Assembly: GCA_964508705.1 (NCBI GenBank)
Contig: CAZDUS010000002.1
Coordinates: forward strand, 67,552 to 131,551
Origin: an uncultured Verrucomicrobiota bacterium
GTDB lineage: Bacteria > Verrucomicrobiota > Kiritimatiellia > CAIKKV01 > CAITUY01
DNA: 64,000 nt
Direction of reading: 5' to 3'
The notes under the pieces are model-generated. The model was given only the letters and a program-made list of their open reading frames with translations. It did not search any database and had not been told where the DNA came from. How positions within the stretch are numbered: position 1 is the stretch's first letter; each line of letters begins with the position of its first letter. The translations under genes and the position numbers were made by a program. This document shows positions 12,141-52,427 of the stretch, in pieces.

Positions 12141-14111
12141 TTAAGGTAAATGGATGTTGCGTCGGATGCGGTCGGTCAGAGTGGCGGCATCGGCACGATT
12201 CAATCGGTCCAGTACCCGTTCCCAGCGGTAGGCAAAACTTCCCTGTTCGTCGCGACTTCGATGCTTGAAGAGTGTGTCGAAGCCACGTTTCCGCTTGCGG
12301 TATTCCTGTTGGATGAAGATGAACCGTTCCATGAATGATTCGAGGTAGGTTGATGCCACTTCCTTGGGGCAGGCGATGAAAGGAAGCCGGCGGTTGATAG
12401 GAGCGGCATAACCGGGGGCTTGTTGCTCCAACGGATGCAAATACTCAGTAAATGTTCCTGTATGATCTGAAACGAGAATATCCTTTGGAATGCCGTCTTC
12501 GCCATCAACCAATATTTCGTCCCCATCATCAAAGAGGACCTGATTGGAGAGGTTCATTCGGCCCACAATGATATTGGGAGCAGCGGCCCGGCCGAGGACT
12601 TCTGCGAATTTCAGACTGTACCTAGGGTCCATGAAACGCGAGCGGGGGATTTTGTCTGTAGCCATTCCAGGGATGTATTCCCGCTCAAAGTACGTTGACC
12701 ATATTGTCTTTCCAGCGTATTCACGACGCGTTCCGTGATAAATCTCCGAGATTTTTCGCGTGGTATTCCGATGAGGCAGGTTCATGCCAAGCTGGCGGCA
12801 ACCCAGTCGACGGTCGAGAATGTAGTCGGTATATTCCTCGGCCTGCATAATGGCGGTGAGGAGATCTTTCTGTTCCTCGAGGTGTTCGCGGATTCCCCAT
12901 TTCTGCATGCGGAGAACACGGATGAGAGGACGATCAACCCGTCGCTGTTTGATTTCCGCCACATAGACGTCGCGCCGGCCTGAGGTGGTTGGTCTCTGGG
13001 ATAGCGAGCCGATGATTCTTCCCACATTAACGTATTCGATGTCGCCGAATTCGCGGACGAAGTTGAAGATAAACCCGCGAGCTTTTTCATCGCAGAGTGT
13101 CCGGTCATGCTCTTCGAAGACGGAGTCGAAAAGCAGTTCGCCTTCCTCGATGCGGCCGCCGGGGAGCCATTCGATCTGCATAAAAAACTCTGAACTCATA
13201 CCCATGATGAGCTCTTCCGGGACAGCTTGTTCGTTTTGGCCAATCAAGGCGGAAAACATCAGGTTCCGCCATTCCGTGTTGTCCGGGTTGTCCTCCAAGA
13301 TTTCAGGACGCACCGCTTGACCAAAATGGGCCTTGAGTGCCTCGAAGCAGACCCGCACGTTGGCGGATGTCATTGTAGAGACGTCGCACTGCGGGATATC
13401 GGCATGGGAAAATTTGCCACTGGTTCCGAAAAAGGCGATTTCAGGACGGCCCCTTCGATTATAGCGGCCGGAGAAATCCCGAATTTCGAGCAGATGAGAG
13501 ATGAGTTCTGCATCGGGAAGGTTGCCTAGTTCGGTGAATTGCTGATGGGTCAAGTACCGGGTTCCGCAGAGGCGGCTGTAATAATAAATGGAGCGCCCGC
13601 CGATAGGAATCTTCGACGAGAGGATCATTTGCTTCATTTCCTCTGGGCTCTGCGGCCATGGTGCTATACGCCAGTTTTCTCCACGTTGTTTGACTGACTG
13701 TCTGATTTTGCCATCAATAGCGTTAAGGAATTTAATTTGGCGTTTGGACACAAGCTCCTGAAGCAATTCATCGGCCTCAAAGGCCAGCGGCATGTTTTCC
13801 GGATCAGGGCGGATAAGAACAACGTTATCATCCATGATCAAGTCGACGGATTGTTGCCATTCGACCATTTCCTCTTCATCGGTAAAAGGTGGTAATCCAA
13901 AACCTTTGCGCTCGGCGTTGATTGCCTCGACATAGGCCATGCGTTGGGTGGCGTGAATACCGGGAAGGGTGACCAGTGTTCGGGCGCGGGGGAAGACTGT
14001 GCCGATCCGGGCCTTTAGATTCCCGGATGAATCTATCGCCAACGGGGGGGCTCCTATGATTCTGACTGCCATGTCTGAAAAATAGCATCGTTTTTGGGAT
14101 GTGAACAGCAT
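12141..14111 (-). CDS. Large conserved hypothetical protein; the C-terminal half shows a protein-kinase-like/AceK-like motif pattern (tentative)
   Basis: 656-aa ORF (alternative start MAVRIIG at 14072). VYVAEIK...RVLRMQKW, YFEREYIPG, AAAPNIIVGRMNLSNQVLF and ILVSDHTGTF resemble the lysine, hinge, catalytic-loop and metal-Asp elements of atypical kinases such as AceK. This is from memory only. Confidence 0.4.
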   Translation of the reverse strand: MLFTSQKRCYFSDMAVRIIGAPPLAIDSSGNLKARIGTVFPRARTLVTLPGIHATQRMAYVEAINAERKGFGLPPFTDEEEMVEWQQSVDLIMDDNVVLIRPDPENMPLAFEADELLQELVSKRQIKFLNAIDGKIRQSVKQRGENWRIAPWPQSPEEMKQMILSSKIPIGGRSIYYYSRLCGTRYLTHQQFTELGNLPDAELISHLLEIRDFSGRYNRRGRPEIAFFGTSGKFSHADIPQCDVSTMTSANVRVCFEALKAHFGQAVRPEILEDNPDNTEWRNLMFSALIGQNEQAVPEELIMGMSSEFFMQIEWLPGGRIEEGELLFDSVFEEHDRTLCDEKARGFIFNFVREFGDIEYVNVGRIIGSLSQRPTTSGRRDVYVAEIKQRRVDRPLIRVLRMQKWGIREHLEEQKDLLTAIMQAEEYTDYILDRRLGCRQLGMNLPHRNTTRKISEIYHGTRREYAGKTIWSTYFEREYIPGMATDKIPRSRFMDPRYSLKFAEVLGRAAAPNIIVGRMNLSNQVLFDDGDEILVDGEDGIPKDILVSDHTGTFTEYLHPLEQQAPGYAAPINRRLPFIACPKEVASTYLESFMERFIFIQQEYRKRKRGFDTLFKHRSRDEQGSFAYRWERVLDRLNRADAATLTDRIRRNIHLP

Positions 14112-27563: not shown

Positions 27564-28559
27564 ATGAAAGTACTTTGTGTGCTTAATCCCAGTGCTGCGG
27601 GAGGCGTCGCCAAAGATAGGTGGGGCGACGTGGCGGCATTAATTGAGCGGCTCGGTGGGGAGTGCGACTTGTTGACCACCGAGGCGGGGAGTTCGCTTGA
27701 GATTCAAGTCAGTGAGTATCTTGAAGGTCATGATCCAGCCTGCTACGGGGCAATCGCCGGGGTGGGAGGAGATGGGACCCATTCCGGAATCATCAATGGC
27801 CTGATGGCGTTTCAGAATGTGCATCCCGGAAGGTTATTACCTCCTTATGCCTTTATCCCGATGGGAACGGGGAACGATATTGCCAAGTCGCTGGGGATCC
27901 GGATTCGTGATGAATTTTCGGCGAGTGATCTTCGGCGAGCGGTGTCGGCGATTTTTCATGGCGCCGATTACTCTCTTGATCTGGGAATAATCAACGGTTT
28001 GTATTTTGCAGACGCGTTAACCGTGGGATTGGACTCCAGTATTTTGAGGGAGCGGAACGCGAATAAACGTCTGATTGAAAACATTCCATTGTTGCGGCAT
28101 ATAGCCCGCGGGCGCTTTCTATACACGTTTTCAATGGGGGCTAGATTATTCAGGCATGAATTGACCGAAGTGGAGGTTGAGGTCGACGGGATGTCGTGGT
28201 ATTCGGGCCCGATGATAAATCTGGTCGTAAACAATACTCGTATATATGCCGGCGATTTTGATTTCAGTGCAGGGGCTTATGCCGATGATGGATTGTTGGA
28301 CGTGGTGCTATTTGCGGATCAAAAGGACTACCTGGCGCGGTATTTGATGGCGATGCGGCATAATCCGGCGAGTCTGCGGGAACTTTCGGAGGATTTGAAC
28401 AGGCGTGCAAAGCATATCCAGGGCAGTCGTATTGTATTAAAAATCAACAAGATACAACCTGCGCAAGTGGATGGTGAAGAGTATCCGGGTAGCAGGGAGT
28501 TTGATATCCGAGTTATCCGGAAGGCATTGAGGATCAAGACCCCTGTGGAGCCGATCTGA
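27564..28559 (+). CDS. Diacylglycerol/lipid kinase family protein (YegS/BmrU-like)
   Basis: NPSAAGG and GGDGT motifs and a DAGK catalytic-domain layout. Length is 331 aa. Confidence 0.8.
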   Translation: MKVLCVLNPSAAGGVAKDRWGDVAALIERLGGECDLLTTEAGSSLEIQVSEYLEGHDPACYGAIAGVGGDGTHSGIINGLMAFQNVHPGRLLPPYAFIPMGTGNDIAKSLGIRIRDEFSASDLRRAVSAIFHGADYSLDLGIINGLYFADALTVGLDSSILRERNANKRLIENIPLLRHIARGRFLYTFSMGARLFRHELTEVEVEVDGMSWYSGPMINLVVNNTRIYAGDFDFSAGAYADDGLLDVVLFADQKDYLARYLMAMRHNPASLRELSEDLNRRAKHIQGSRIVLKINKIQPAQVDGEEYPGSREFDIRVIRKALRIKTPVEPI

Positions 28560-28595
28560 TTGGACGCGGGGGTGTGGCATGACAAGGGAAGCAAG

Positions 28596-29666
28596 ATGGA
28601 CACATTGAATATTGCACCGGTTTCTGACGGAGAGCGACTCATCACGGGATGGGAGTTTTTGCGGAGTGATCTGGGCGGGATCTGGGAAGCGGTTCGATTG
28701 GTTAAAAAAGGTAATCCCGAGAGTGTTCCGCCGTGGGCACCTGTTACCCTGCCGCATTGTTTCAATGCCACGGACGCTGTTGATCCCGATGTAAGCTATT
28801 ATCAGGGGCCGGGATGGTATCGGACGTATTTAGCGATCAATCAGCCCCATTCCGATGGGCGTGTGGTTTTGCATTTTGAGGGGGCCGGCCAGAAAACACG
28901 CGTGTTTGTATACACCACTGAGGTGGCGCAGCACGTTGGTGGATACGATGAATTCACTGTGGATATCACGAAAGAGGTCAATGAGTTCTTAATGACGGAT
29001 GTTTGCCGGGAGCAGTTTCATTGCCGTGTGCCGGTGATCATCCGATGCGATAATTCACGCGATTTGGAGACTATTCCATCGGATCTGTCGGATTTCAATT
29101 TGTATGGCGGGTTGTATCGATACGTGAATTTGTTGTATCTGCCGCCAGTGTATATCGACCGCGTAACCGTTCAGGCGTCAGCAGGGGCGGTGGGGGGTAG
29201 AGGTGCCTGCGTGATATCGGCGTCGATCAAGAATCATGCCGGGCACGCTTCGGCTGAGGCTGAGATACGTATTTTGGATATGGCGGGTGCCGTTATTGCA
29301 AAGAAGAAGGCAACGTTTCCGGCGGTTTCCGGCAGACATGAACTTTGCAGCATTGAAGTGGACAAGCCGAATCTCTGGTCGCCCGATAAGCCCTATTTGT
29401 ATACTTGCCGTGTGACGGTTAGTTTTCCGTCAGGCAGACATGAAGTGAGTGAACGCTTTGGCTTCCGATCCTTTGAATTCGTGAATAACGGTCCTTTTCT
29501 TTTGAATGGGAAACGGTTGTTGTTGAGAGGGACCCATCGGCATGAGGATCACGCAGGTGTTGGGGCGGCGATGACCGAGGAGATGATTATTGCCGAGATG
29601 ACCCTGATGAAGGAGATGGGGGTTAACTTTATTCGTCTGGCCGTAGCAGATTCCGCTCATCGTTAA
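28596..29666 (+). pseudogene. Glycoside hydrolase family 2 (beta-galactosidase/glucuronidase-like), N-terminal fragment truncated at the start of the TIM barrel
   Basis: Sugar-binding and Ig-like domains are present (WYRT, LWSPDKPYLY, NGKRLLLRGTHRHEDH, MKEMGVNFIRLA). Similarity stops where the conserved HYP of GH2 should follow, and the ORF ends 7 codons later. Confidence 0.8.
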
Positions 29667-30192
29667 GCAATGTTCCGCCATGAGCTTGCCAGAGCCTGGC
29701 GATCGTGGTTTTGCCTGCGCCAGACATCCCGGAAAACAGGATGACCTTGCCATCAACCAGCACGGCGCTGGAATGGACCATGATGGACTCCAGATGGCAG
29801 AAGCGGCCGAGAATGATGGCGCGGTCCTGCGGGTGATACAGGGGGCGAATGAATGGCGCGTCCGGTGCGGGCTGGGGTACAAACAAGTCGCCATGGCTGT
29901 AGTCGCTTGCGATGTGGGCGGCCCTCAACCAACGGGAGGCATGGATGTCGTTGACTTCGATGTCGATGAAATCGCCAGACTCGCGTGTGCGCCAGATTCC
30001 GTTATCCCAGAGAATGCGGCCATCTTCCGGGAGCAAGTTGCCGGGTCTGGCGGTGTAGGTTGCGGCGGGCTGGCCTGCTTTATTGGCGTTGAGGAATAGT
30101 GAGTAATTATCGGGGGGCCGGAGCGGGGGAAGCGTTGAGGAGCCAATAACGCGGAAGTGAGTTTCCGCAAGGGAGAAATCAAGCGTAGTCAC
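29629..30192 (-). pseudogene. HPr-kinase-like P-loop protein, C-terminally truncated
   Basis: 187 aa from a GTG start. The P-loop GMSGAGKTT and LLNDE resemble the HprK-type nucleotide-binding core. The ORF ends 13 aa after LLND, at the junction with the GH2 fragment, so roughly the last third of such proteins appears to be missing. Confidence 0.6.
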
Positions 30193-30199
30193 TGTTTAA

Positions 30200-30378
30200 T
30201 CAGGAAGGGTCAAAGCCAGCGTTGGGTGTCTGCTCCGGAGACTGGGAACAGCAATCGCTGGTCGGGTTGCCTGTCAGGTTTCCGGATTTCGCGCAAGTGT
30301 CGAATGTAACCAGATTCTTGTCTTCAAACCGAACCTCGGTGATGACTGGCGAGACATAAGTTTTTTCGGTTCGCTCAT
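30200..30378 (-). CDS. Candidate RiPP precursor peptide requiring a -1 shift at an A6 run (conceptual 59 aa: MSEPKK|TYVSPVITEVRFEDKNLVTFDTCAKSGNLTGNPTSDCCSQSPEQTPNAGFDPS)
   Basis: ATG at 30378 has a GGAG Shine-Dalgarno 7 nt upstream. The zero frame stops after 34 codons at 30274. The -1 frame is open from the A6 run (30361-30366) to TGA at 30200-30202, 7 nt before the kinase GTG. It has 3 Cys and ends in Ser. Confidence 0.5.
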
Positions 30379-30442
30379 GGTTATTCTCCGCTGATGAGCA
30401 GTTAAACTATCCAGTTAGGGGAGGCGACTCAATCTTAATAAA

Positions 30443-31489
30443 TCAGGGTATTTGTTCGGATTTTGTCAGTTGGCAAAAGAACGAAGGGGCCCCATCCGCC
30501 CGGCCTGTTTCCAGAATGGAGAATGCCGGACAGCAAGCGCACTGACTCCTGTGTTCGCAAGCATCGCAAAGGCCGCCGGGTGCTGGTCGGTTGCGAAGCG
30601 CTGTGAGATGCGCTTTCAACGCTGTCATTGGCGGGCGCGTGGTCAGGTCAAATGGATCCTGGCGCCATGACAGGCAGGGGTGTGCCTGATGTTGGGCGTC
30701 CACATGAACGGTCATGATGCCGGCGCCGCACTCGAACAAGGCGCGCCGTTTGGTGGCCGGGGGTTGAGCAGGCGCTGGTTGTCGTTCGCGATCCCGCCGC
30801 CTGAGTTTGGCGATATCAACGGGGGAAAGTCTTTCGTTCAAGGGGGAAGAGTCGCCGGCGAGGCAGGGGTGGATGATGGCGTCGTACCGGAATCCGCAAC
30901 CCAGGCTGAGCGCCCAGTCGCGCATGGCATCCAATTCATGGGCGTTGGAGTGCATGATCATGGATTTGAGGCGGACAAGGATACCGCGCTTGAGTAGACC
31001 ATCCACGCCTTGACGGAAGCGGCGGTAGGAGCCGGGGGCCCCGGTGACGGCCTCGTAGGTTTGTTCACTGTGCCCGTAGATGGTTAATTCGACGCGGCGG
31101 GGTGGGGCATCCGCCAGGAAGTCCATGAGTGAATCGTCGAGGAGGGTCCCATTGGTAAACAGGGTGAGGAAGAATCCGCATTGCTTGGCTTTGCGATAGA
31201 TGGCCCTGAAATCAGGGCGGGTGAGAGGCTCGCCGCCAGTAAAGACCAGAAAGAGGACCCCCCAGTCCCGCAGGGTTTCAAGCAAGGTTTCCACCTCATG
31301 GGTAGATTTGTCAGGCAGAACGGAGCCGTTGTAGCGGAGGTAGCAATGTTTGCAGGCGATATTGCAGGCGGAGGTCAGTTCAAGGGATGCCACGAAGGGA
31401 AAAGAGGATGCGTGCCAGTCGGAAGCGTGAAGGTCTTCGGCAAATGTGCCTGAGGTGATCTGCTCGATTAGGCAGTCTGTTCCCGTCAT
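30443..31489 (-). CDS. Radical SAM enzyme with C-terminal SPASM/twitch-type Cys cluster (peptide maturase-like)
   Basis: CNIACKHC (CxxxCxxC) lies near residue 42. The C-terminal pattern is CGAG...HPC...CDACEHRSQCACCPA. The start is 3 nt after the PqqD-like stop. Confidence 0.85.
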   Translation of the reverse strand: MTGTDCLIEQITSGTFAEDLHASDWHASSFPFVASLELTSACNIACKHCYLRYNGSVLPDKSTHEVETLLETLRDWGVLFLVFTGGEPLTRPDFRAIYRKAKQCGFFLTLFTNGTLLDDSLMDFLADAPPRRVELTIYGHSEQTYEAVTGAPGSYRRFRQGVDGLLKRGILVRLKSMIMHSNAHELDAMRDWALSLGCGFRYDAIIHPCLAGDSSPLNERLSPVDIAKLRRRDRERQPAPAQPPATKRRALFECGAGIMTVHVDAQHQAHPCLSWRQDPFDLTTRPPMTALKAHLTALRNRPAPGGLCDACEHRSQCACCPAFSILETGRADGAPSFFCQLTKSEQIP

Positions 31490-31492
31490 CGG

Positions 31493-31783
31493 TTACTCCT
31501 GGTGGGAAGGGTTCAAGGCGCCGATGTTGGACATGGCGTCCAGGAATTGTCGCACATCAGCTTTGGCGGCGGACTCCGTCACGGCGTATTCTGAGGTCAG
31601 GCTCTTGATTAGGGAGTTTTCTGTCTGAGCGGTGTGCAATTGACGCCAGAGGAAAGCGGCTGTTTCGTTCAGGGTGTAGAGGGCGTCCAAGCGGGCGGGG
31701 CCGCTTTTCAGGGGGACGAGCATCAGCTTGTTACGGATAGTTCGTTCGACGACGTTTTCTGATTGGATGAAACGAGTACTCAT
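31493..31783 (-). CDS. PqqD-family peptide-binding (RRE) protein
   Basis: 96 aa. ...LVPL....LYTLNETAAFLWRQL......LIKSLTSEYAV....AKADVRQFLDAM matches the PqqD pattern. Only the last third of the listed 273-aa ORF is credible. Confidence 0.8.
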   Translation of the reverse strand: MSTRFIQSENVVERTIRNKLMLVPLKSGPARLDALYTLNETAAFLWRQLHTAQTENSLIKSLTSEYAVTESAAKADVRQFLDAMSNIGALNPSHQE

Positions 31784-31793
31784 GTGGGGGTGG

Positions 31794-31822
31794 ATTATAG
31801 TGTGGCGATGGGGTAGCAACAA
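31794..31822 (-). promoter_or_regulatory. Candidate sigma70-type promoter of the PqqD-rSAM cassette
   Basis: The minus strand reads TTGTTG-17 nt-TATAAT, with the -10 box ending 10 nt before the PqqD ATG. This implies a very short or absent 5' UTR. Confidence 0.35.
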
Positions 31823-31937
31823 GCCATCATTGGGATTCCATAGGGCGAGAGATTGGGGAGAGTACTTCGGTATTGATTGCTGGATGAGTTCAGGGTAATG
31901 CTTACGCGGTTTTGTTGAACCATCAGGGGAGAGTAAA

Positions 31938-33161
31938 ATGGATTTCCAGAAGTTGTTTGCGGAGCGGATAGGCGGAGTTACGTTCGGCACGAAGAACGAG
32001 ATATACAAGTTTGAAAAGATCAAGAGAGCCAAGGCGGCGGCACGCGCGGCCCGGCCAACGGTGGAGTTGCTGGATTTCGGAGTTGGGGAACCCGACCAGA
32101 TGGCGCCAGCACCGATCAGGAAGGCGCTTAAGAAGGCTGTAGATGATCCGGCAAACCGAGGGTATGCCGACAATGGCATCCGGGAGTTCAAGGTAGCGGC
32201 GGCGGAATACATGGCCAAGTTTTTCGGGGTGACAGGTCTTGACCCCGAGACGGAGATCACGCACAGCATTGGATCGAAGCCGGCGTTGGCCATGTTGCCG
32301 CTTTGTTTCATCAATCCCGGCGATGTGGCATTGGTGACGGTGCCGGGTTATCCGGTGCTGGCGACGCACACGCGATATCTGGGCGGGGAAGTGGTCAAGG
32401 TGCCGCTTCGCAAGGAGAATGGATTTTATCCGGCGCTCGACAAGCTGGACCCCGAGGTAGTGCGACGTGCGAAACTGCTCTATGTGAACTATCCGAACAA
32501 TCCCACGGGGGCGGCTCCTACGGAGGAATTGTTTGATGAGCTGATTGCGTTCGCGAAAAAGAACAACATCCTGATTGTGCAAGATGCGGCTTATGCGACA
32601 TTGGTTTACGGGCGTGAGCCGTTGTCCATTCTCAGTCGTCCGGGCGGGAAGGACGTGGCGATTGAACTGCATTCGATGAGCAAGAGCTACAACATGACAG
32701 GCTGGCGCCTGGGATTTGTGGCTGGGGCCCCACGCATTGTTCAGGCTTATGCCGAGGTGAAGGACAATATTGATTCCGGGCAATTCAAGGCGATTCAATT
32801 GGCGGCATGCGCAGGGATTGCCGACAAGGCGCTGTCCGACAAGATCAAGAAGCATTATGAGCGGCGGTTGCGCAAGATGGTCAAGGTTCTGAAGCGGGTG
32901 GGCTTCAAGGCGAAAATGCCGGGTGGGACCTTCTACCTTTACGTTCCGGCTCCGAAGGGTGCGGGAATGACAGTGTTCAACACGGCGGAAGATGCCTCGC
33001 AGTATCTAATCCGCGAGTGTTCTATCTCGACGGTTCCCTGGGATGATGTCGGGACGTTCCTGCGCTTCTCAGCGACGTTTGAAAGCGCTGGGAAGGCTGA
33101 TGACGACAGGGTTATTGCCGAGTTGGAAGAGCGCTTGCTGAAGGCTGACCTGAGGTTTTAA
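31938..33161 (+). CDS. dapL: LL-diaminopimelate aminotransferase-like class I PLP aminotransferase
   Basis: 407 aa with YKFEKIKRAK...LDFGVGEPD, NYPNNPTG and SMSKSYNMTGWRLGF motifs typical of the DapL family. Confidence 0.7.
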   Translation: MDFQKLFAERIGGVTFGTKNEIYKFEKIKRAKAAARAARPTVELLDFGVGEPDQMAPAPIRKALKKAVDDPANRGYADNGIREFKVAAAEYMAKFFGVTGLDPETEITHSIGSKPALAMLPLCFINPGDVALVTVPGYPVLATHTRYLGGEVVKVPLRKENGFYPALDKLDPEVVRRAKLLYVNYPNNPTGAAPTEELFDELIAFAKKNNILIVQDAAYATLVYGREPLSILSRPGGKDVAIELHSMSKSYNMTGWRLGFVAGAPRIVQAYAEVKDNIDSGQFKAIQLAACAGIADKALSDKIKKHYERRLRKMVKVLKRVGFKAKMPGGTFYLYVPAPKGAGMTVFNTAEDASQYLIRECSISTVPWDDVGTFLRFSATFESAGKADDDRVIAELEERLLKADLRF

Positions 33162-33277: not shown

Positions 33278-34180
33278 TCAGGCCTCGAGCTGGCGGGCGA
33301 TGCGAGCCGCGTCCTTTTCGGTTTTGACCGGCCGGGTGTTCTTCAGGAGTTTCCAAGTCTCGATGTGCTTGACGGACTTTCCCGGGGCGAGGGAGATCAG
33401 GGGGCCGAGGGATTCCATCTCCAGCATGCTTTCATTGGAGAACGTCTCGAAATTCACGCCGCCATCGGGGTAAGTGGCACCTTCGATAAAGGCGAATGAC
33501 TTAGCCAGCAGGAAGCCATCGAGCTGGTAAGCCACCCAGCCTTCACGGTGGGCGATGCCCAGCTTGGCCGGTCCGTGCTTGCGGCTTTGTCGAAAGAACA
33601 CATAACGGGACCCGATTGTCCATCGTCCGTCGGCGAGGTCCGTGTAACTCCAGATACTCCATGACTGGTTATGGAGGAGGTTGGTGGTGTGTGAACCTTT
33701 TTCCGGCAGGGGAATAATGCAGAGCCCGTCCGGGGACATGACGGTCAATGACCAGGGGGCCAGCGTGCGGGGTTTGCGTCCGCGATTGACAAGCTGATGT
33801 GTGATGGTGATTTCGTTGTCGGTGTCCGACATGCGGATATCCATGATCTTCTAGATGCAGGTGAGTGGGCCGGGTTCCTGGAGGGTACGGATCCCGCCCG
33901 GGATTTTACGATGCACCAAGGGGGCATTATCGAGTTCGTATGTGTCGGGTTGACATTCCGGTGCGATCCACAGGCGGTGTCCGCCACGGATCATCCATTC
34001 CTTTTCATGGGTGCCACCCATTTGCTCCGGGAATTCGGCCAGGAGGTTGCGTTTGTTGATGAAACCGCAATGGATAATGCGCGGGCCGACGTCCTTGGTG
34101 ACGATCAGGTCAATGGAGCCATTGGACAGCCGGATGTTGCTATTCCAGCCTTTGTGGGGGACGGATTCGATCCTTGGCAT
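33278..34180 (-). pseudogene. DUF4380/galactose-mutarotase-like protein interrupted by one in-frame TAG
   Basis: The ORFs 33851-34180 and 33278-33844 are in the same frame, separated by TAG (33851-33853) plus two codons. Read together they make one protein of about 299 aa (GPRI, GGHRLWIAPE, APWSLTV, LEMESLGPL). Confidence 0.65.
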
Positions 34181-34249
34181 GGGGGCACCGTTTATTGCTT
34201 AGCGTTTCAGCGAAAACGCCAGCCTTTGCATTACGCTACAAGCGAAGGT

Positions 34250-34324
<75 letters not shown>

Positions 34325-34350
34325 GTGAAAAAACGGCACAAACACTATTG

Positions 34351-34379
34351 AAAAAAAAAGCGGGTGTCAACAAGCCCGC
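34351..34379 (-). terminator. Rho-independent terminator of the 34388-34999 gene
   Basis: The minus strand reads GCGGGCTTGTTGACACCCGC followed by T9. Confidence 0.85.
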
Positions 34380-38145: not shown

Positions 38146-38760
38146 ATGGCGGAAGAATTGCAGCATCTTATTGACCGTATTCAGAAGGATGGTATCGCAA
38201 AAGCGGAGGCGGAAGCGGGGCGGATTGTGGCCCAGGCCAAGGAGGACTCTGCGGCCATTATCCGCGAGGCGGAGATCAAGGCACGGGAACATACGGCTGG
38301 CGCGGAGAAAGACGCAGAACTCTTTGCGGAGCGGGGGCGCAAGTCATTGGAGCAGGCGGCCCGTGATGTTGTGCTGCTGGTGAATCAGGCTGTGAGCGAT
38401 ACCTTGAAGCGTATTGTGGACGCTGATGTCGGGAAGGCCCTGACTCCCGATGTGATGAAGCAGATGATGGTCAAACTTGTGGAGACGTATGGCGCAAACA
38501 AGGGTGACTCGGTGGAGATTGATTTGCTGGTAAATCCTGCCGATCAGAAGGTCATTGTCGATTTTTTCCTGAAGGAATTCAGGTCAGCGCTTGAAAAGGG
38601 TGTTGAAATACGCGCGGATGCCGGTGTCTTGTCCGGGTTCAGGGCTTCGATTGAAGGAGCGCATGTTCATCATGAGTTCACCCGCAAGGAAATTGCCGAG
38701 GCGCTTTGCCGACTAGTGAGGCCGCGTCTGGCGGAAATCGTGAAGGGGTCGATCCGGTAG
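38146..38760 (+). CDS. ntpE: V-type ATPase subunit E
   Basis: 204 aa with an N-terminal long charged helix (IQKDGIAKAEAEAGRIVAQAKED...). It is the first gene of the V-ATPase operon. Confidence 0.75.
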   Translation: MAEELQHLIDRIQKDGIAKAEAEAGRIVAQAKEDSAAIIREAEIKAREHTAGAEKDAELFAERGRKSLEQAARDVVLLVNQAVSDTLKRIVDADVGKALTPDVMKQMMVKLVETYGANKGDSVEIDLLVNPADQKVIVDFFLKEFRSALEKGVEIRADAGVLSGFRASIEGAHVHHEFTRKEIAEALCRLVRPRLAEIVKGSIR

Positions 38761-38803
38761 CGGGAAGAGAGCCGATGAGGGGATCGGCCATCAAAGTCAC
38801 AGA

Positions 38804-39337
38804 ATGAACTATTATTACCTTGTTGCGAGTTTGCCGATGCTGACGTTAAGTAAGGAGCCCGCGCTGGATGCGGATGCTTTCCTTGCGTTATGTCGAGCGC
38901 ACCTGACCCAGGACGATCAGTTGGCGATGGAGGCTTTGTTGCAACGGGGTGGCGAGGGGAGCAATCATCCCTTCATTGTGGCGTGGCGTGATGATGAGAC
39001 GCGACTGCGCAACGCGGTGGCGCGGGTCCGTGCCGGCAGGCGCGGAGTGGAGGCAGAGTCTTACTTGAGACCCGTGAACGGGGTTGATCTCGCCTTAAGT
39101 CACGCTGTGGATGACGCGTTTGGGCGCGGCACCCCGGCGGAACGGGAGCTGGAGATTGATCGCATCCGATGGCATCGGATTGAAGCGTTGGCCGGACTGG
39201 ATGTGTTTTCGCCAGCGTCGGTGTTGGCTTATGGGTTGAAACTGAAACTTGCCAGCCGGTGGGCGCAATTGTCGACGGAGGCGGGGCGGCAGAGGCTGGA
39301 GGATTGGGTAACCACGGCGGCGGTTGAGTCGCCATGA
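38804..39337 (+). CDS. DUF2764-like protein (subunit C-equivalent of bacterial V-ATPase operons)
   Basis: 177 aa with MNYYYLVASLP at the N-terminus. It lies between the E and A subunit genes, as in Bacteroidota/Chlamydia-type operons. Confidence 0.6.
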   Translation: MNYYYLVASLPMLTLSKEPALDADAFLALCRAHLTQDDQLAMEALLQRGGEGSNHPFIVAWRDDETRLRNAVARVRAGRRGVEAESYLRPVNGVDLALSHAVDDAFGRGTPAERELEIDRIRWHRIEALAGLDVFSPASVLAYGLKLKLASRWAQLSTEAGRQRLEDWVTTAAVESP

Positions 39338-39353
39338 AAGAGGACGGGAAACA

Positions 39354-41084
39354 ATGAGTACGAGCGGAAGGATCATGGGCGTGAACGGGAATATGATTAC
39401 CGTTCAATTTGAAGGCGCCGTGGGCCAGAATGAGGTTGGTTACGCGCGACTTGGGACACTCCGGTTGATGTCCGAGGTTGTACGGGTCCGGGGAAGTTAT
39501 GTGGACATGCAGGTGTTCGAAGACACCACTGGTTTGGCGGTGGGGGACAGCGTTGAGTTTAGCGGAGAGTTGTTGACCGTGGAACTGGGGCCGGGTCTGT
39601 TGACGCAGATATTTGATGGCTTGCAGAATCCACTGCCCAGCCTTGCGGAGAAATGCGGATTTTTCCTCGAGCGCGGAACCTATCTTCCTGCATTGCGGAG
39701 AGACGCGACATGGGTTTTCACTCCAAGCGTGAAGGTTGGTGACCGGGTAACGGCAGGGGAAACACTGGGTGCAGTGCCGGAGGGCATCTTTCAGCATCGA
39801 ATCATGGTTCCGTTCGGCATGGTGGGGGTGTTGACCGTTGAGGAAATCGCGGTTAAGGGATCTTACACGGTGGATCAGAAGGTGGCGAAGCTCAAGGATG
39901 AGCAGGGAGAGGTTCATGAGGTCGCCATGATGCAGAGGTGGCCGGTAAAGATTCCGATCCGCGCCTATGCTGAACGGCTGAGGCCGACGGAGTCGCTGAC
40001 GACGAAGATTCGCATTATCGACACGTTTTTCCCTGTGGCGCGTGGTGGAACGTATTGCATTCCCGGACCGTTTGGCGCCGGGAAAACTGTATTGCAGCAG
40101 TTGACGAGCCGTTATGCCGATGTGGATGTTGTGATTGTGGCGGCATGCGGCGAGCGGGCCGGGGAGGTGGTGGAGACATTGCGTGAGTTCCCGACCATCA
40201 CGGATCCGAGAACAGGGCGCAGTTTGATGGAGCGGACGGTTATTATCTGCAATACCAGTTCAATGCCGGTGGCGGCGCGCGAAGCGTCGGTGTACACGGC
40301 GGTGACGCTGGCAGAGTATTATCGTCAGATGGGGCTCAACGTGTTGTTGCTTGCGGATTCAACGTCGCGGTGGGCGCAGGCCTTGCGCGAGATGTCGGGG
40401 CGGCTAGAGGAGATTCCGGGCGAAGAGGCGTTTCCAGCTTATCTAGAGTCGGTGATTGCCAGTTTTTATGAACGTGGCGGCGTGGTGACTTTGAAGGATG
40501 GATCAAAGGGGTCCGTGACGATTGGCGGGACGGTGAGTCCGGCGGGCGGAAATTTTGATGAGCCGGTGACGCAGTCCACGCTCAAGGTGGTAGGTGCGTT
40601 CCACGGGCTGTCACGGGCGCGGTCCGATGCGCGGCGCTATCCGGCGATTGATCCGCTTGATAGTTGGACCAAGTATGCGGGCGTGGTGTCGGAGAGTGAA
40701 GTTGCATTGGCGAGGAATGTGCTGGTGCGAGGCAATGAGGTCGGGCAGATGATGAAGGTGGTAGGGGAGGAAGGGACCATGATTGATGATTTCATCGTTC
40801 ATCTTAAAGGGGAATACCTTGATGCCGTCTATCTGCAACAGGATGCCTATCATGAGGTGGATTGCGCGACGCCAGCCGAACGGCAGCGGCATGTCTTCAA
40901 GACCATGGGGAAGATATTGAAAGCGAAGATGCGGTTTGCCGACAAGGATGGGGCTCGGCAATTTTTCCATCGTCTGGCCCAGATGACGCGGGATTGGAAC
41001 CGCATGGCGATGGAAACTGAGGAATTCAAGCAACAGCAGGCCCGGTTGGAGGGTGTGCTAGCGGAGGTGACCGGACATGCATAA
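39354..41084 (+). CDS. ntpA: V-type ATPase catalytic subunit A
   Basis: GPFGAGKTV Walker [16 protein letters not shown], and the non-homologous insertion typical of A subunits. Confidence 0.95.
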
Positions 41085-42411
41085 GGTTTATCATCGGGTT
41101 GACAACATTGCGGGCAACGTTGTGAACGTCAAGGCGCCCGGGGTTAAGTATCGCGAATTGGCGGAAATCACGTCGCGCCGCGGGACATCACTGGCGCAGG
41201 TTATCCGGTTGCAGGGCGATACGGTTTCGTTGCAGGTGTTTGCCGGGGGGCGTGGTATCGCCACCGATGCCCATGTGCGGTTTCTTGGGCATCCGATGCA
41301 GGTGCCGTTTTCTGACTCCCTGCTGGGCAGGGTGTTCACGGGTAGCGCCATGCCGCGCGACAAGGGGCCGGCGCTGAAGGATAACCTGATCGATATTGGC
41401 GGTCCCTCGGTGAATCCAGCCAAGCGTATTATTCCGCGACGGATGGTCAGGACGGGGATTCCGATGATTGATGTGTTCAACACGCTGGTTGAATCCCAGA
41501 AACTGCCGATTTTCGCGCGGGCAGGGGAGCCGTATAATGCGCTGTTGTCGCGAATCGCCTTGCAGGCCGAGGTGGACGTTATTGTTCTGGGCGGCATGGG
41601 GTTGAAGCACGATGACTACCTTGCGTTCCGTGACTCCCTGGAAGAGCAGGGGGCGATGTGGCGCACGGTGATGTTTGTCCATACGGCGGCGGACCCTGTG
41701 GTGGAATGCCTGCTGGTGCCCGATATATGCCTTGCGGTGGCGGAGCAGTTCGCGCTGGCGAACAAGCGGGTGCTGGTGCTGTTGACTGACATGACCAATT
41801 TTGCCGACGCCTTGAAGGAGATTTCCATTACCATGGAACAGGTGCCGGCCAATCGGGGCTATCCGGGCGATCTCTATAGCCAGTTGGCGGCCCGCTACGA
41901 GAAGGCGGTTGATTTTGATACCGCCGGGTCGATTACCCTGCTGGCGGCGACCACGATGCCGGGCGATGATGTGACGCATCCTGTGCCGGACAATACGGGC
42001 TATATCACTGAGGGGCAGTTCTACCTACGGGGAGGGCGCATTGAGCCGTTTGGTTCGCTTAGCCGTCTCAAGCAGTTGGTTAACGGCAAGACGCGCGAAG
42101 ATCACCGGACCATCATGAATTCGATGATCCAATTGTACGCTGGGTATCGGGAGACACTGGAAAAGCAGTCGATGGGATTCCGGATGAGCTCGTGGGACCA
42201 GAAGCTCCTGAAATTCGGGACGCTGTTTGAGAAGGAGATGATGGATCTGTCGGTCAATATTCCGCTGGAAGGAGCGTTGGAATTGGGCTGGAAGTTGTTG
42301 GCGGATTGTTTCGATCCGGTGGAGACAGGGATTCCTTCTAAGCTAATTGAGAAGTTCTGGCCGAAGCAGAAGCATGCGGCGCAGGTTGAATCCGGCAAGG
42401 CGAGCGCTTGA
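41077..42411 (+). CDS. ntpB: V-type ATPase subunit B
   Basis: 444 aa with the typical B-subunit core ([30 protein letters not shown]). Confidence 0.95.
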
Positions 42412-42428
42412 TCTGATAAGTCATTGTC

Positions 42429-43079
42429 ATGGCCAAGATTAAACATACGAAGAATGAGTTAAAGACGCAGAGGGAGTCGTTGCGCCGCTATGAACGTTTC
42501 CTGCCGATGTTGCAGTTGAAGAAGATGCAACTGCGGATGGAACTTCAATCCATTGACGCCCAGATAAGCGAGAAGCGCGAGCAGGAACGTGATGTGCTGG
42601 CTTCGGTGGAGCGATGGGTTCGTCTGTTTTCCGAGCCTGTGGAGTTGGCGTCCTTAACGCGGATTGAGCGGGTTGTCGTGGCTGAGAGTAATGTGGCTGG
42701 TGTTGCGGTGCCGATCCTCAAGGATGTGGTTTTTGTGCGCGCGGAGCAGGACTTGTTCCTGACCCCATCGTGGCTGGATGAGGCTGTGGATGTGATGGAG
42801 CAACTGGTGCAGGCCAGGATAGAGGTTCGGATTTTACAGGAGCAACACCGCTTGATTGGAGAGGAGCTGAGGACAACCTCCCAACGAGTGAACTTGTTTG
42901 AAAAGGTGAAGATACCTGAGGCGAGAGACAATATCCGGGTGATCAAGATATTCCTGGGCGATCAACAGACGGCGGGCGTGGCGCGGGCCAAGTTTGCGAA
43001 GGGGCGCGCGGAGGACATGGAGGGTGACACTTACTCGTTGGCGGCGGTGGGAACCGTCGGGAAGGAGGGGGCCCCATGA
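42429..43079 (+). CDS. ntpD: V-type ATPase subunit D
   Basis: 216 aa with a coiled-coil N-terminus (KHTKNELKTQRESLRRYERFLPMLQLKK) typical of subunit D. Confidence 0.9.
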   Translation: MAKIKHTKNELKTQRESLRRYERFLPMLQLKKMQLRMELQSIDAQISEKREQERDVLASVERWVRLFSEPVELASLTRIERVVVAESNVAGVAVPILKDVVFVRAEQDLFLTPSWLDEAVDVMEQLVQARIEVRILQEQHRLIGEELRTTSQRVNLFEKVKIPEARDNIRVIKIFLGDQQTAGVARAKFAKGRAEDMEGDTYSLAAVGTVGKEGAP

Positions 43080-44857
43080 TTGTCCCGATGAAGCGCGTTA
43101 CTCTTTTGAGTTTCCAGCCGGATCAGGAGCTTACGCTGAATGTACTCCGTGAGATGGGGGTTCTACATGTGACTCCTGTAGTGGTTCCGGACAGTGATGA
43201 CTTGAGTAAGGTCCAGGTAAAACTTGCTGAGGGGCGAGAGGCCTTGCAATTGCTTTCGAGCATCAAGGGCGGGGTCGAGGCGCATACTGCTGGTGGCACT
43301 GCGGCGATGGCTGTGGATGATGTGATTTCCGCCGTGAGAGATGAAACCCGAAGGCAGAAGGATTTGTCTGTGCGGATTGAGGGACTTGAACGCGAGGAGG
43401 AAGCGGTAAGGCCATTCGGGTCGGTTGAGCCAAGTGCTTTGCAGGCACTGGCTGACGCAGGGGTGACAGTGAAGTTGTGCCAGATGGCTGCGACGTTGCC
43501 GATCCCGGTTGTGCAAGGGGCTTTGGTTCAGGTGATTGACGAGGGCAAGCGTGAACGTACGCTGGCGATTGTGTCGAGGGAGGAAGTGGATTGTCCCGGG
43601 CGTGAGTGCGCGTGGCCCGCACGGCCATTGGGATCCATTCAGCGCGAACTTGGCGAGACACGCGGTGCTCTGGAGCAATCGAGGACTGTGTTGTCGGGGC
43701 TGGCTGTTCATTCGGGGGCCGTGAGGGAACGAGTTGTTGAGCTTGAGACTGTGGAGCAATTCGCGCTTGTGAGGGATGGGATGGGGGCATGGGACCGGAT
43801 CAATTATCTTACGGGATATTGCCCGGCTGAGCGCGTGACTGAATTGCAGGCAGCGGCGAAGCAACATGGATGGGGGTTGATGGTTCGTGATCCCCAAGCT
43901 GATGATCAGGTGCCAACGTTGTTGCGAAACTCGCGGTGGGTTCAGCCAATCAAGGCTGTATTCGACATGCTGGGGATATTGCCCGGCTATCGTGAGATTG
44001 ATGTAAGTGTGTGTTTTCTGCTCTTCTTCAGTTTGTTCTTTGCCATGTTGGTTGGGGATGCCGGGTATGGCGCCATCTTTTTGGGTCTAACGGTAATGGC
44101 GCGGCGCAAGATGCCGAAGGCACCGGTTCAGCCGTTCGCGTTGATGATTGTGATGTCGATTGCGACCATGGTTTGGGGCGTGTTGACGGGAACGTATTTC
44201 GGGATTGCCGAGATACCACTGGTCTTGAAGAGTTTGAGGATTGACTGGTTGACCAACGAGGAGAATCTCAAGCTGTTATGTTTTGTCATTGGGACGGTGC
44301 ATCTAATGGTGGCACATGCCTGGAATGGGCTGGTGAATCGCCGTTCCCTGACGGCACTGGCCCAGTTGGGCTGGGTGGGGACCACGCTTTGCATGTTCTA
44401 TCTATCAAGGTTCATGGTGTTGGGCGTGGATATGCCATCGTTCGTGTGGCCGGTGATGGCGGGTAGCGTGGTGTTGATTGTCCTGTTCATGACCCCGGTG
44501 AAGGCGCTGAAGGACGAGTGGTTTAATCATGTGATGTTGCCGTTGAGCGTTGTCAGCAATTTCATGGATGTCATATCCTATGTCCGGTTGTATGCGGTGG
44601 GGATGGCGTCGTTGGCGCTGGCTATGGCGTTTAATGAGATGGCGGCGGGGTTTGGAACTGGTGTCGGGGCGCGCATGGCGGCTGTTGTGGTTTTGTTTCT
44701 TGGGCATGCGTTGAATCTGGTGCTGGCGGGGATGGGTGTGATGGTGCATGGGGTCCGGTTGAATGCGCTGGAGTTTTCGTCGCATATTGGATTGTCTTGG
44801 ACGGGAGTGGCTTTTCGTCCCTTTGCGGGCAAGAAGGAATTAGCGAAGGCGGAGTAG
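43076..44857 (+). CDS. ntpI: V-type ATPase subunit I (a-subunit, membrane stator)
   Basis: 593 aa with a soluble N-terminal half and a polytopic C-terminal half containing the conserved SYVRLYAVGMAS segment. Confidence 0.9.
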   Translation: MIVPMKRVTLLSFQPDQELTLNVLREMGVLHVTPVVVPDSDDLSKVQVKLAEGREALQLLSSIKGGVEAHTAGGTAAMAVDDVISAVRDETRRQKDLSVRIEGLEREEEAVRPFGSVEPSALQALADAGVTVKLCQMAATLPIPVVQGALVQVIDEGKRERTLAIVSREEVDCPGRECAWPARPLGSIQRELGETRGALEQSRTVLSGLAVHSGAVRERVVELETVEQFALVRDGMGAWDRINYLTGYCPAERVTELQAAAKQHGWGLMVRDPQADDQVPTLLRNSRWVQPIKAVFDMLGILPGYREIDVSVCFLLFFSLFFAMLVGDAGYGAIFLGLTVMARRKMPKAPVQPFALMIVMSIATMVWGVLTGTYFGIAEIPLVLKSLRIDWLTNEENLKLLCFVIGTVHLMVAHAWNGLVNRRSLTALAQLGWVGTTLCMFYLSRFMVLGVDMPSFVWPVMAGSVVLIVLFMTPVKALKDEWFNHVMLPLSVVSNFMDVISYVRLYAVGMASLALAMAFNEMAAGFGTGVGARMAAVVVLFLGHALNLVLAGMGVMVHGVRLNALEFSSHIGLSWTGVAFRPFAGKKELAKAE

Positions 44858-44912
44858 CGCCGTTGACGTAATAACGAGTAAATAACAGAGACTGAAAGGA
44901 GCGGGTGGGAGT

Positions 44913-45368
44913 ATGGATGCAGCAACGATGATGGGATTGTGCAAAGTGGGAGCGGCAATGGCGCTGGCGTTGGGTGCGGTCGGGTCGGCGCTAGGAGTGG
45001 GTTGTGCGGGACCGGCGGCGGTGGGCGCATGGAAGAAGCTCTATGTGCAGGGCAAGGCGGCGCCGTTTGTGTTCGTGATCTTCATTGGCGCACCGTTGTC
45101 ACAGACGATTTACGGGATGTTGCTGATGAATTTCATCCTGAAAGCGGCGGCGGCTGATCCCACCCGTTGGCTGGGGTATCTGGGGGTAGGGTTCTTTGGT
45201 GGTTTAGGAATAGGGTTTCCTGCCTGGTTCCAGGGTAAGATCGGAGCCTGCGCGGCGGATGCAATGGGGGAATCGGACAAGGGATTGGGCAATTACATCA
45301 TGGCGCTCGGTATCATAGAGTCCGTTTCGATCTTTGTGTTGATATTCGTGATGTCAGTACTCAAGTAG
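44913..45368 (+). CDS. ntpK: V-type ATPase proteolipid subunit K (4-TM c-subunit)
   Basis: 151 aa in four hydrophobic helices, with a single carboxylate in the last helix (GIIESVS). Confidence 0.9.
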   Translation: MDAATMMGLCKVGAAMALALGAVGSALGVGCAGPAAVGAWKKLYVQGKAAPFVFVIFIGAPLSQTIYGMLLMNFILKAAAADPTRWLGYLGVGFFGGLGIGFPAWFQGKIGACAADAMGESDKGLGNYIMALGIIESVSIFVLIFVMSVLK

Positions 45369-50465: not shown

Positions 50466-50509
50466 AGGGGGGGAAGGCAAGTATTCAGGATTCAGAATTC
50501 AGAATGGGG
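50466..50509. repeat. G/A-rich tract plus tandem heptamers TATTCAG GATTCAG AATTCAG AATGGGG
   Basis: Read directly after the hrpB stop. Heptamers lie at 50482-50502. Confidence 0.8.
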
Positions 50510-50563
50510 ATTTGCATGGGGGAGAGAGATGCTTTGGCAGGCTCAGCATGACAAATGGAGCGG

Positions 50564-50591
50564 GGATGGCCACGATGAAGCGTGGCCATCC
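50564..50591. terminator. Perfect 11-bp hairpin between convergent hrpB and lctP
   Basis: GGATGGCCACG-ATGAAG-CGTGGCCATCC. There is no adjacent U-run on either strand. Confidence 0.4.
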
Positions 50592-50603
50592 AGTCCGGAA
50601 GAC

Positions 50604-52427
50604 TCAGTGGAAATGCATTTCGTCTTCTACGGCCTTAAGCGATTCCAGATTCTTGCCCAGGAGTCTCGCCATAATAGTGACCAGGGTGATGACGGCAATG
50701 CCTATGCCGAGATACAGAAGGCCATCATGGTTGAAGGTGGCGACAGCGGTGTTGGCTGATGCCGAAGTTGGCGACGGGGTCGCGGTGGAAAGCTTCTGAT
50801 ATGTGGGAACCATGCCGGGCACAACGTACGCCCAGAGAAGATGCATGCAGCCAACTACGATGGCCAGAATGAGCGAATGCTTGAAGGTGAACCTGAAAAT
50901 GTCAGATTCATGTCCCACAAGGCCTGTGGATCCTGTGGCTACAGCGATGGATTGGGGCGAAATCATTTTTCCGCAGACCCCGCCGCAGGTATTGGCTGAC
51001 ATCGTGATGACCGGATCAACGCTGATCTTGGTGGCCGTGACTTCCTGAAGTTTTCCGAAGAGCGCGTTGGTGGAGGTGTCCGAGCCTGTCATGAACACGC
51101 CGAGCCATCCGATGATGGCGGCGAAGAACGGGAATACCGCGCCTGAGGTCGCGAAGGCGCTACCGAGGGTGATGGCCATTCCTGAGAAGTTCATGATGTA
51201 GGCGAACCCGAGGATGGTGGCGATGGTAATGATGGGCCACTTAAGCGTCTTGATGGTTTTGACTGCCACGCCGAAGGCGGTGGCAAGAGAGGCGCCCATG
51301 ATCGGAATTGAGAAGAACCAGGCAAAGAGGATGGCGGTTCCGGCGGCGCTCAGGACATTGAAGACATAGACTGCAGGCTTTGCCATGCCGAGGTTGTCGA
51401 CGACCATGTTGTCGAGACCGGGAATGTGGATCTTGAAGTTGAAGAGCATACCCATTAGTAGATCTAGGGCCTCCTTGCATGGTTTGATTCCCCATATGGT
51501 AACGAAAAACGACAGGATGATGAACGGAGCCCAGGCCCTGAATATCTGGCCGCCGGTGAACGTGAGCTTTTCCCGTCCGAGGCTTGGTTTTTCGTTAGGG
51601 AAGTGCCAGCTTGTCTTCGGATGCCATAATTTGAGAAAGACGACGGTGCAGATGATGGACGCGAGGGAGGCGATGATGTTGGGGAGCATTGGGCCGATGA
51701 AGTTGGACGATAGGTATTGAGCGATGGCAAAGGAAAGGCCGGAGACGAGGCAGGCGGGCCAAACTTCGAGTCCTCTTCGGAAGCCAGCGATGAGGATGAC
51801 GAGATAAAGAGGGATGAGGACGCTTAGGAATAGGAGGGTCCGTCCCACCATCTGGCTTAAGGCCATCTCAGGGAGTCCGGCGACTTGAGCGCCGACGACG
51901 ATGGGGATGCCGATGGCGCCGAAGGCCACCGGGGCGGTATTGGCCAGTAAGCAGACGCCGGCGGCATAGAGGGGATTAAAGCCAAGTCCGACAAGCATGG
52001 CGGTGGTGATGGCAACGGGAGTGCCGAATCCCGCGGCGCCTTCGATAAAGGCGCCGAATGAAAAGGCGATCAGGAGGGCCTGCATGCGGCGATCGTCGGA
52101 GATGGAGGCGAGCGAGTTCTTGATGACCTCGAACTGGCCAGTTTTGACGGATAGGTTGTAGATGAAGAGGGCTGTGACGACGATCCAGCAGACGGGTAGC
52201 AAGCCGAACAGTGCGCCGTAGGCTGTGGAAAGGAATGCGTATTTTGCGGGCATTCCGTAGACCGTGATGGCTATGGTTATTGCAATGGCCGTGCCACTGA
52301 TGGCGGCCCAGTGTCCTTTCATCCGTTTCACGGCGAGCGCCCAGAAGAGGTAGAAGATCGGGATGGCGGCAATGAGGGCGGACAGGACGATGTGGCCTGT
52401 CGGATCGATGTTCATTTTCCACGGCAT
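50604..52427 (-). CDS. lctP: L-lactate permease family transporter
   Basis: 607 aa, polytopic, with a typical LctP N-terminus (LSALIAAIPIFYLFWALAVKRMKGHWAA). Confidence 0.85.
   Translation of the reverse strand: MPWKMNIDPTGHIVLSALIAAIPIFYLFWALAVKRMKGHWAAISGTAIAITIAITVYGMPAKYAFLSTAYGALFGLLPVCWIVVTALFIYNLSVKTGQFEVIKNSLASISDDRRMQALLIAFSFGAFIEGAAGFGTPVAITTAMLVGLGFNPLYAAGVCLLANTAPVAFGAIGIPIVVGAQVAGLPEMALSQMVGRTLLFLSVLIPLYLVILIAGFRRGLEVWPACLVSGLSFAIAQYLSSNFIGPMLPNIIASLASIICTVVFLKLWHPKTSWHFPNEKPSLGREKLTFTGGQIFRAWAPFIILSFFVTIWGIKPCKEALDLLMGMLFNFKIHIPGLDNMVVDNLGMAKPAVYVFNVLSAAGTAILFAWFFSIPIMGASLATAFGVAVKTIKTLKWPIITIATILGFAYIMNFSGMAITLGSAFATSGAVFPFFAAIIGWLGVFMTGSDTSTNALFGKLQEVTATKISVDPVITMSANTCGGVCGKMISPQSIAVATGSTGLVGHESDIFRFTFKHSLILAIVVGCMHLLWAYVVPGMVPTYQKLSTATPSPTSASANTAVATFNHDGLLYLGIGIAVITLVTIMARLLGKNLESLKAVEDEMHFH

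Follow-up and report, generated by a model that had tools for sequence, protein, structure and literature searches.

Gene Content of the Locus

The stretch of DNA that was analyzed here (64,000 nucleotides, hereafter the window) contained a small cassette on the minus strand with genes for, in order, a PqqD-family protein, a radical SAM (rSAM) maturase, a short precursor peptide, and an HprK-related kinase. By its predicted gene content, namely an rSAM enzyme, an RRE/PqqD protein, and an adjacent small conserved precursor, the locus qualifies as a generic rSAM/SPASM RiPP cassette. Its features are as follows.

31493..31783, minus strand: PqqD-family peptide-binding (RRE) protein, 96 aa, intact (PF05402, 2.8e-14; gene calls)
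30443..31489, minus strand: radical SAM maturase, 348 aa, intact (PF04055, 6.7e-22)
30386..30389, minus strand: GGAG Shine-Dalgarno-like motif, 7 nt upstream of the ATG at 30378
30200..30378, minus strand: precursor-peptide gene with a 1-nt deletion, 179 nt here and 180 nt in the intact allele
30361..30366, minus strand: A6 homopolymer run, the frameshift site; A7 in the intact allele
30274..30378, minus strand: zero-frame ORF of 34 codons, a frameshift remnant; stop codon at 30276-30274
29629..30192, minus strand: truncated HprK-related (ScmC-like) P-loop kinase gene, 187 aa; weak matches to HprK_rel_A, ScmC, and HprK_rel_B
28556..29637, plus strand: replacement segment of 1,082 nt; breakpoints at 28555/28556 and 29637/29638, both sharp

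The order PqqD-rSAM-precursor-kinase was conserved in the orthologous cassettes, in which the kinase was full-length. The PqqD gene was called as 96 aa in every related contig; a longer ORF of 273 aa (31493-32314, minus strand) was rejected as an over-extended version that runs antisense into an aminotransferase gene (31938-33161, plus strand). Seven cysteines of the rSAM protein were invariant in the family alignment (C254, C272, C308, C311, C317, C320, and C339), and its C-terminal Cys cluster looks SPASM-like, with partial matches to models of SPASM peptide maturases that were all far below the cut-off. Elsewhere in the window, a V/A-type ATPase operon (subunits A, B, D, I, and c; 38146-45368, from Pfam matches on an identical contig, L036) is followed by genes for IspD, a metallophosphatase, and an HrpB-like helicase, which is an ordinary chromosomal context and fits a Kiritimatiellia-like genome.

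Two Reading Frames in the Precursor Gene

On the minus strand, the GGAG motif (30389-30386) is followed after 7 nt by ATG (30378) AGC GAA CCG AAAAAA (30366-30361) CTT ATG, and the same ATG was chosen by gene callers for the 59-aa gene in contigs that carry A7. Translation from this ATG in the window gives MSEPKKLMSRQSSPRFGLKTRIWLHSTLARNPET, of which the authentic part comprises the first six residues only (MSEPKK); the other 28 residues of the 34-codon ORF are out of frame. The second frame stays open between a TAG near 30410 and the TGA at 30202-30200, contains a coding stretch that reads ...TYVSPVITEVRFEDKNLVTFDTCAKSGNLTGNPTSDCCSQSPEQTPNAGFDPS, and ends in ...ERTEKTYVSPVITEVRFEDKNLVTFDTCAKSGNLTGNPTSDCCSQSPEQTPNAGFDPS before its stop codon. 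A scan of this frame for in-frame ATG, GTG, and TTG codons found none, and its stop is separated by 7 nt (TTAAACA) from the GTG at 30192 that starts the next gene. The slip-site stretch is GAACCGAAAAAACTTATG, and the A6 form of the tract region is GAACCGAAAAAACTTATGTCT. Rereading one A fuses MSEPKK to TYVSP... and gives a peptide of 59 aa. In the intact allele, the A7 run is read as the codons AAA AAA ACT (K5, K6, and T7), and the product is MSEPKKTYVSPVITEVRFEDKNLVTFDTCAKSGNLTGNPTSDCCSQSPEQTPNAGFDPS.

The first-pass annotation had described a candidate precursor split between two frames at the A6 run, with a -1 frame that has no start codon of its own and stops 7 nt before the kinase gene. 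The minus-strand sequence and the ORF listing (30274..30378, 34 aa) confirmed the two frames, and the frame scan confirmed the start-less one; the zero-frame stop lies 81 nt from the next gene, not 82 nt as given there.

Orthologs of the 59-aa Peptide

In the protein search, the joined 59-aa peptide matched a 59-aa protein (P0001) at E = 9e-31 with 95% identity, within the one cluster of 59-aa proteins that was recovered, and another member of this cluster (P0002) was identical to the joined peptide residue for residue. The second frame is therefore coding, well beyond chance. The same exact peptide is encoded by a single A7 ORF in near-identical metagenome contigs, and the 59-aa reconstruction that had been proposed from the window alone was thus correct. 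Distant relatives were collected by an alignment of rSAM homologs and a subsequent scan of one genome per species, in which the best identity was 64% and the window's own species was absent. The genome scan yielded 30 loci, mostly in metagenome-assembled genomes (MAGs) of Kiritimatiellia/Verrucomicrobiota with a few in Chloroflexia, and in 22 of the 30 the rSAM gene was immediately followed by an uninterrupted small ORF belonging to this family. In four loci (L020, L022, L028, and L033), the precursor or kinase was unrecognizable directly after the rSAM match, which may reflect another gene order or decay of their own. According to the family alignment, none of the 22 orthologous cassettes kept the zero-frame 34-aa peptide. 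The first-pass annotation would have been abandoned had no ortholog carried a contiguous 59-aa ORF; contiguous precursor ORFs were clearly present, in these 22 cassettes and in six conspecific A7 assemblies.

Five residues of the family (K6, Y8, P11, C29, and C44) were invariant and a C-terminal Ser was nearly so. The invariant leader motif K-x-Y-x-x-P straddles the A run, with K6 before it and Y8 after it, and the frameshift thus cuts the motif in two. The fuller consensus, which was derived from positions 30200-30378 of the window and L007-L035, is K-x-Y-x-x-P-x-(I/V)-T-x-V-(K/R)-(L/F)-E-D for the leader and ...F-D-x-(S)-P-S for the C-terminus. Scans of the 59-aa peptide and two orthologs against Pfam and NCBIfam assigned them to no family. 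In the Kiritimatiellia/Verrucomicrobiota and Chloroflexia MAGs in which this precursor family occurs, an HprK-like kinase gene always comes after it, and this arrangement suggests, by analogy, that the C-terminal Ser is phosphorylated as in lasso peptides of the paeninodin type. Because both the near-identical contigs and all 22 orthologous cassettes have one contiguous ORF, the comparison identifies the A7 single ORF as the ancestral and functional state, from which the window differs by a deletion of one nucleotide.

A6 and A7 Alleles within the Species

The two tract lengths were counted in assembled contigs that were found through the proteins they encode. Five A7 contigs (L001-L005) were 99.4-99.96% identical to the window and differed from it at the site only by A7 for A6; one of them, L002, differed by one SNP and the A-run indel over 5,004 nt. 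A contig of 99,890 nt from JGI (L036), which was found via a look-up of a neighboring protein, differed from the window by two substitutions and no indels over 21,323 nt (99.991% identity) and likewise had A6. The assemblies carry the alleles as follows.

A6: window, assembly of this stretch
A6: L036, JGI 3300042547
A6: L041, JGI 3300034092
A6: L043, JGI 3300042507
A6: L042, SRR12261227
A6: L055, ERZ27272042
A7: L001, SRR21524769
A7: L003, SRR21524760
A7: L002, ERZ27272096
A7: L005, ERZ27272103
A7: L004, JGI 3300042376
A7: NCBI MAG GCA_041443025.1 (P0001), read from the protein

The tract is therefore polymorphic in length at a nucleotide identity of at least 99.4%, with A6 in six assemblies and A7 in six. 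Some of the SRA runs and JGI/ENA assemblies behind these counts may share reads, with A6 still present in at least three distinct JGI samples. Several of the samples appear to belong to a lake time series. Two scans of metagenome contigs, one with a pattern of variable A-run length and one with a 41-nt flanking pattern, returned no match, these samples being evidently outside the collection searched; an exact look-up of the 656-aa protein encoded at 12141-14111 likewise returned no record.

These data bear on an error in sequencing or assembly, in which the organism would truly carry A7 and the A6 of the window would be an artifact. Homopolymer indels are the commonest type of error on some platforms, and the difference is indeed a single base inside a run. 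However, A6 recurred in at least five other assemblies that were obtained from different samples by three pipelines (JGI, Logan, and ENA/MEGAHIT), and each of the three yielded both alleles. Furthermore, across more than 30 kb of near-identical contigs (about 24064-47971 and 49399-54071), in regions that include runs of A9, T8, T7, and G7, the window showed no further indel of its own. Because A6 was recurrent in independent assemblies and no other window-private indel occurred, the A6 allele is regarded as genuine; the homopolymer error that the first-pass annotation had allowed for is largely refuted and must now be considered most improbable. No homopolymer in the window exceeds the A9 run at 34351-34359, which lies immediately after the stop codon of the ORF at 33797-34351, and the two near-identical contigs that cover it (L036 and L037) showed no difference in its length.

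Absence of the Hallmarks of Recoding

Programmed -1 frameshifting or transcriptional slippage on the A6 run, as the normal and regulated means of low-level synthesis of the 59-aa peptide, would make the split frame a functional arrangement. A -1 slip of tRNA-Lys on CCG AAA AAA C would yield the A7-type product MSEPKK-TYVSP..., and some leaky rescue of this kind is chemically plausible. A-rich shift sites are well known, including A AAA AAG in dnaX and A AAA AAC in IS1. The locus resembles dnaX and IS1 insAB' in its A-rich run read by tRNA-Lys, where a -1 shift gives a functional product; it differs from both in that a canonical zero-frame heptamer, a stimulatory structure, and conservation are all absent, and in that the allele with a single ORF is ancestral. 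The zero-frame heptamer is G AAA AAA (from CCG AAA AAA CTT) rather than X XXY YYZ or A AAA AAN, which permits perfect re-pairing for the A-site tRNA only. The 103-nt segment that covers the site and the sequence beyond it (30372-30270) folded no better than shuffled sequences (z = +1.34; 187 of the 200 shuffles as good), and the sole Shine-Dalgarno-like motif is the ribosome-binding site of the gene itself, GGAG, about 20 nt upstream of the run. The two-frame layout was seen neither in the 22 orthologs nor in the six conspecific assemblies with A7, and the A run itself is absent from the closest relatives. Slippage by RNA polymerase is efficient only on runs that are longer than A6. The programmed recoding that had been put forward for the window thus found no support in layout, heptamer, or downstream fold, and is judged to be highly unlikely; if ribosomes occasionally slip by -1 on AAA AAA and so make the correct product, this would count as leakiness and not as a designed feature.

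Truncation of the Kinase Gene

The cassette of the window carries a second lesion. The kinase has 286 aa in L001 and L003 and is full-length in orthologous cassettes, whereas homology to the full kinase ends sharply at 29638 in the window, where the last 99 residues are gone. The truncated kinase noted at first reading is hence a protein of 187 rather than 286 aa; an exact look-up of the 187-aa form, with either V or M as its first residue, found no record. The 1,082-nt segment that follows holds only the N-terminal third of a GH2 glycosidase, in an ORF of 368 aa (28560-29666) that lacks the catalytic barrel and covers the profile up to about position 337 of 666.

The island that occupies this place in other strains (L045 and L001) comprises a surface-protein gene, genes for an NTP_transf_5 nucleotidyltransferase and a SipW-like signal peptidase, and the 3' end of the kinase gene. 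In L001 and L003, the genes for the peptidase and the nucleotidyltransferase come after the kinase in convergent orientation, and both genes were also found in the cassettes of the two closest relatives. On the far side, the window and L045, which has the full kinase, cease to be homologous at 28555, where a diacylglycerol-kinase-like gene has its stop codon; in L045 this gene is followed by one for an SdrD-B/DUF11 surface protein longer than 1,220 aa. The truncated GH2 and kinase genes were considered as the two ends of one simple deletion, and this was rejected because the full-kinase strain has a non-GH2 island there. In the type represented by the window, a replacement or deletion appears to have removed the C-terminus of the kinase together with the nucleotidyltransferase and peptidase genes.

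The truncation at 29638 was present in the window, L002, L005, L036, L046, L047, and the shorter contigs that reach the junction, and occurred with both tract lengths. Since it was found with A7 (L002 and L005) as well as with A6, and since its carriers are more diverse (up to 23 SNPs, in L047) than those of A6 (0-2 SNPs), the truncation probably preceded the frameshift.

SNP Backgrounds and Phase Variation

Tract length was not tied to a single haplotype. TG at 30064/65 accompanied A7 in L004 and A6 in L043, while A at 30858 accompanied A7 in L001 and L003 and A6 in L055, and all four combinations of tract length with the SNPs at 30064/65 and 30858 were present. Two pairs of contigs were identical but for the tract, namely L004 and L043 (over about 1.28 kb) and the window and L002 (29915-30669). 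Homologous recombination could produce such a pattern, as could the merging of mixed strains into consensus contigs or repeated slippage at the tract; of the three, repeated slippage alone would imply a phase-variable locus. With each tract length present on more than one SNP background, a single recent mutation would require recombination or chimeric assembly in addition; otherwise, the indel must be recurrent.

A 220-nt stretch in the 5' region of the kinase gene (29955-30176) contains a cluster of SNPs (30064/65, 30082/83, and 30115-30124), and contig ends from several independent samples fall within it. These contig breaks indicate co-existing strains, and confidence in the phasing of SNPs from consensus contigs is reduced accordingly.

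Recurrent slippage would be expected of a phase-variable contingency switch, in which slipped-strand mispairing at the A7 tract turns the precursor reversibly off (A6) and on (A7) and the variability itself is useful. Several observations agree with this reading: both lengths are common, each occurs on two or three SNP backgrounds flanking the tract as recurrent switching predicts, contig pairs exist that differ in nothing else, the PqqD and rSAM genes are intact, and the tract occupies codons 5-7, where translational phase variation is typically found. As in the contingency loci of Neisseria, Haemophilus, and Campylobacter, the tract falls in the first codons, and on and off lengths are present in one population. 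In contrast to those loci, the tract here has 7 nt, is unconserved, and comes in two lengths, and it lies in a RiPP precursor gene, not in one for a surface or restriction-modification function. Classical contingency loci have tracts of at least eight G/C or at least nine A/T, and seven A are short for a tract that mutates at a high rate. The closest orthologs read AAG AAA ACC and AAG AAA CCT at this position, and an in-frame A7 occurs in just one of the 22; A5 and A8 were absent, and the longer A9 run at 34351-34359 did not vary among the contigs that span it. The four-combination pattern is accounted for equally well by recombination or by consensus contigs of mixed strains, and contigs break repeatedly at 29955-30176. 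The cassette to be controlled already has a truncated kinase. A phase-variable switch is accordingly rather unlikely. That A7/A6 acts as a working switch of a RiPP precursor in a wild freshwater population of Kiritimatiellia-like bacteria, maybe with a leaky -1 rescue in the off state, is more doubtful again; if true, producers and non-producers would exist at similar frequency, and the locus would represent phase variation of a secondary-metabolite precursor gene.

Decay of the Cassette as the Preferred Explanation

The observations are best explained by a real, heritable deletion from A7 to A6 as a recent loss-of-function step in a decaying cassette, a reading that is held to be reasonably probable. 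The deletion in codons 5-7 would shift the ribosome after MSEPKK and give a nonsense product of 34 aa. Because the remaining frame has no start codon, the precursor would be effectively unmade, save for a small fraction from spontaneous -1 slips on the A run. The A6 allele would have arisen in a lineage that had already lost the C-terminus of the kinase and the nucleotidyltransferase and peptidase genes, and would represent continued decay of the cassette once selection on it had relaxed, with the allele now segregating at intermediate frequency in a wild freshwater population that probably belongs to the Kiritimatiellia.

The fresh pseudogenization that the first-pass annotation listed among its options is supported by the single A7 ORF in the six conspecific assemblies and the 22 cassettes and by the truncated kinase: as in other recent pseudogenes, the frame is broken relative to intact orthologs, an alternative start is lacking, and further lesions lie in the same cluster. 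Homopolymer frameshift pseudogenes of bacterial populations likewise show the loss of one base in a short run near the 5' end, an intact allele in close relatives, and a second lesion in the same cluster; they differ from the present case, in which the alleles are about equally frequent across metagenome assemblies and occur on more than one SNP background. Two observations count against decay. Long-standing decay would not predict intact PqqD and rSAM genes, and at a split of roughly 50:50 (six A6 and six A7), the knockout is more frequent than one would expect were it neutral or deleterious.

For annotation, the locus is to be entered as a precursor gene with a frameshift, whose 59-aa product is known from sister strains, and not as a 34-aa ORF or a recoding site. 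About half of the assembled genomes would have knocked out the substrate gene of their rSAM cassette after the loss of tailoring genes, which is an ordinary kind of event that is unusually cleanly documented here, and which makes the locus a small, clean case of how a natural population loses step by step, or possibly switches, a secondary-metabolite trait.

Probable Working of the Intact System and Related Systems

In the intact system, the PqqD/RRE protein would bind the K-x-Y-x-x-P leader, and the rSAM enzyme would modify the core, with the two invariant Cys as its most likely targets. Related SPASM enzymes most often form a cross-link of the thioether type. The HprK-like kinase would phosphorylate the conserved C-terminal Ser, by analogy with paeninodin and pseudomycoidin, and the NTP_transf_5 protein may decorate the phosphate on that Ser, by analogy with PsmN of pseudomycoidin. 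In these two lasso peptides, the terminal Ser is phosphorylated by a kinase of the HprK family (PadeK/PsmK), and in pseudomycoidin the nucleotidyltransferase PsmN subsequently hexosylates the phosphate (PMC6993621). Both systems share with the present cassette an HprK-like kinase and an uncharacterized nucleotidyltransferase beside a precursor that ends in Ser. In contrast to them, the cassette lacks a lasso cyclase and a protease and has a radical SAM protein as its core enzyme, and phosphorylation of its Ser is suggested from conservation only.

The cassettes described in silico by Haft (SynChlorMet, with ScmC/D/E/F; GeoRSP; and HPr-rel-A) also contain an rSAM with a C-terminal Cys cluster, a PqqD/RRE protein, and an HprK-related P-loop protein, with NTP_transf_5 nearby, as in the intact strains here. 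They differ from the present cassette, which has a single rSAM gene and a precursor without a Pfam or NCBIfam model. The NCBIfam scores were 20 against a cut-off of 125 for ScmC, 24 against 200 for HprK_rel_A, and 66 against 400 for both the GeoRSP rSAM and ScmE; across TIGR04249/04248/04250, TIGR04303/04355, and TIGR04352/04353, all scores were 15-66 bits against cut-offs of 35-400. Because all of these lie far below the curated cut-offs, the cassette can be placed, on its profile scores, as one that has the same types of genes as SynChlorMet, GeoRSP, and HPr-rel-A and is a member of none of them. A literature search for a characterized cassette with rSAM, PqqD, and HprK found none in the library covered.

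Follow-up appears worthwhile for two things only, the uncharacterized precursor family and the possible on/off polymorphism. The family, with its K-x-Y-x-x-P motif, two Cys, and C-terminal Ser, is without a curated model or a characterized product and is the better lead for natural products.
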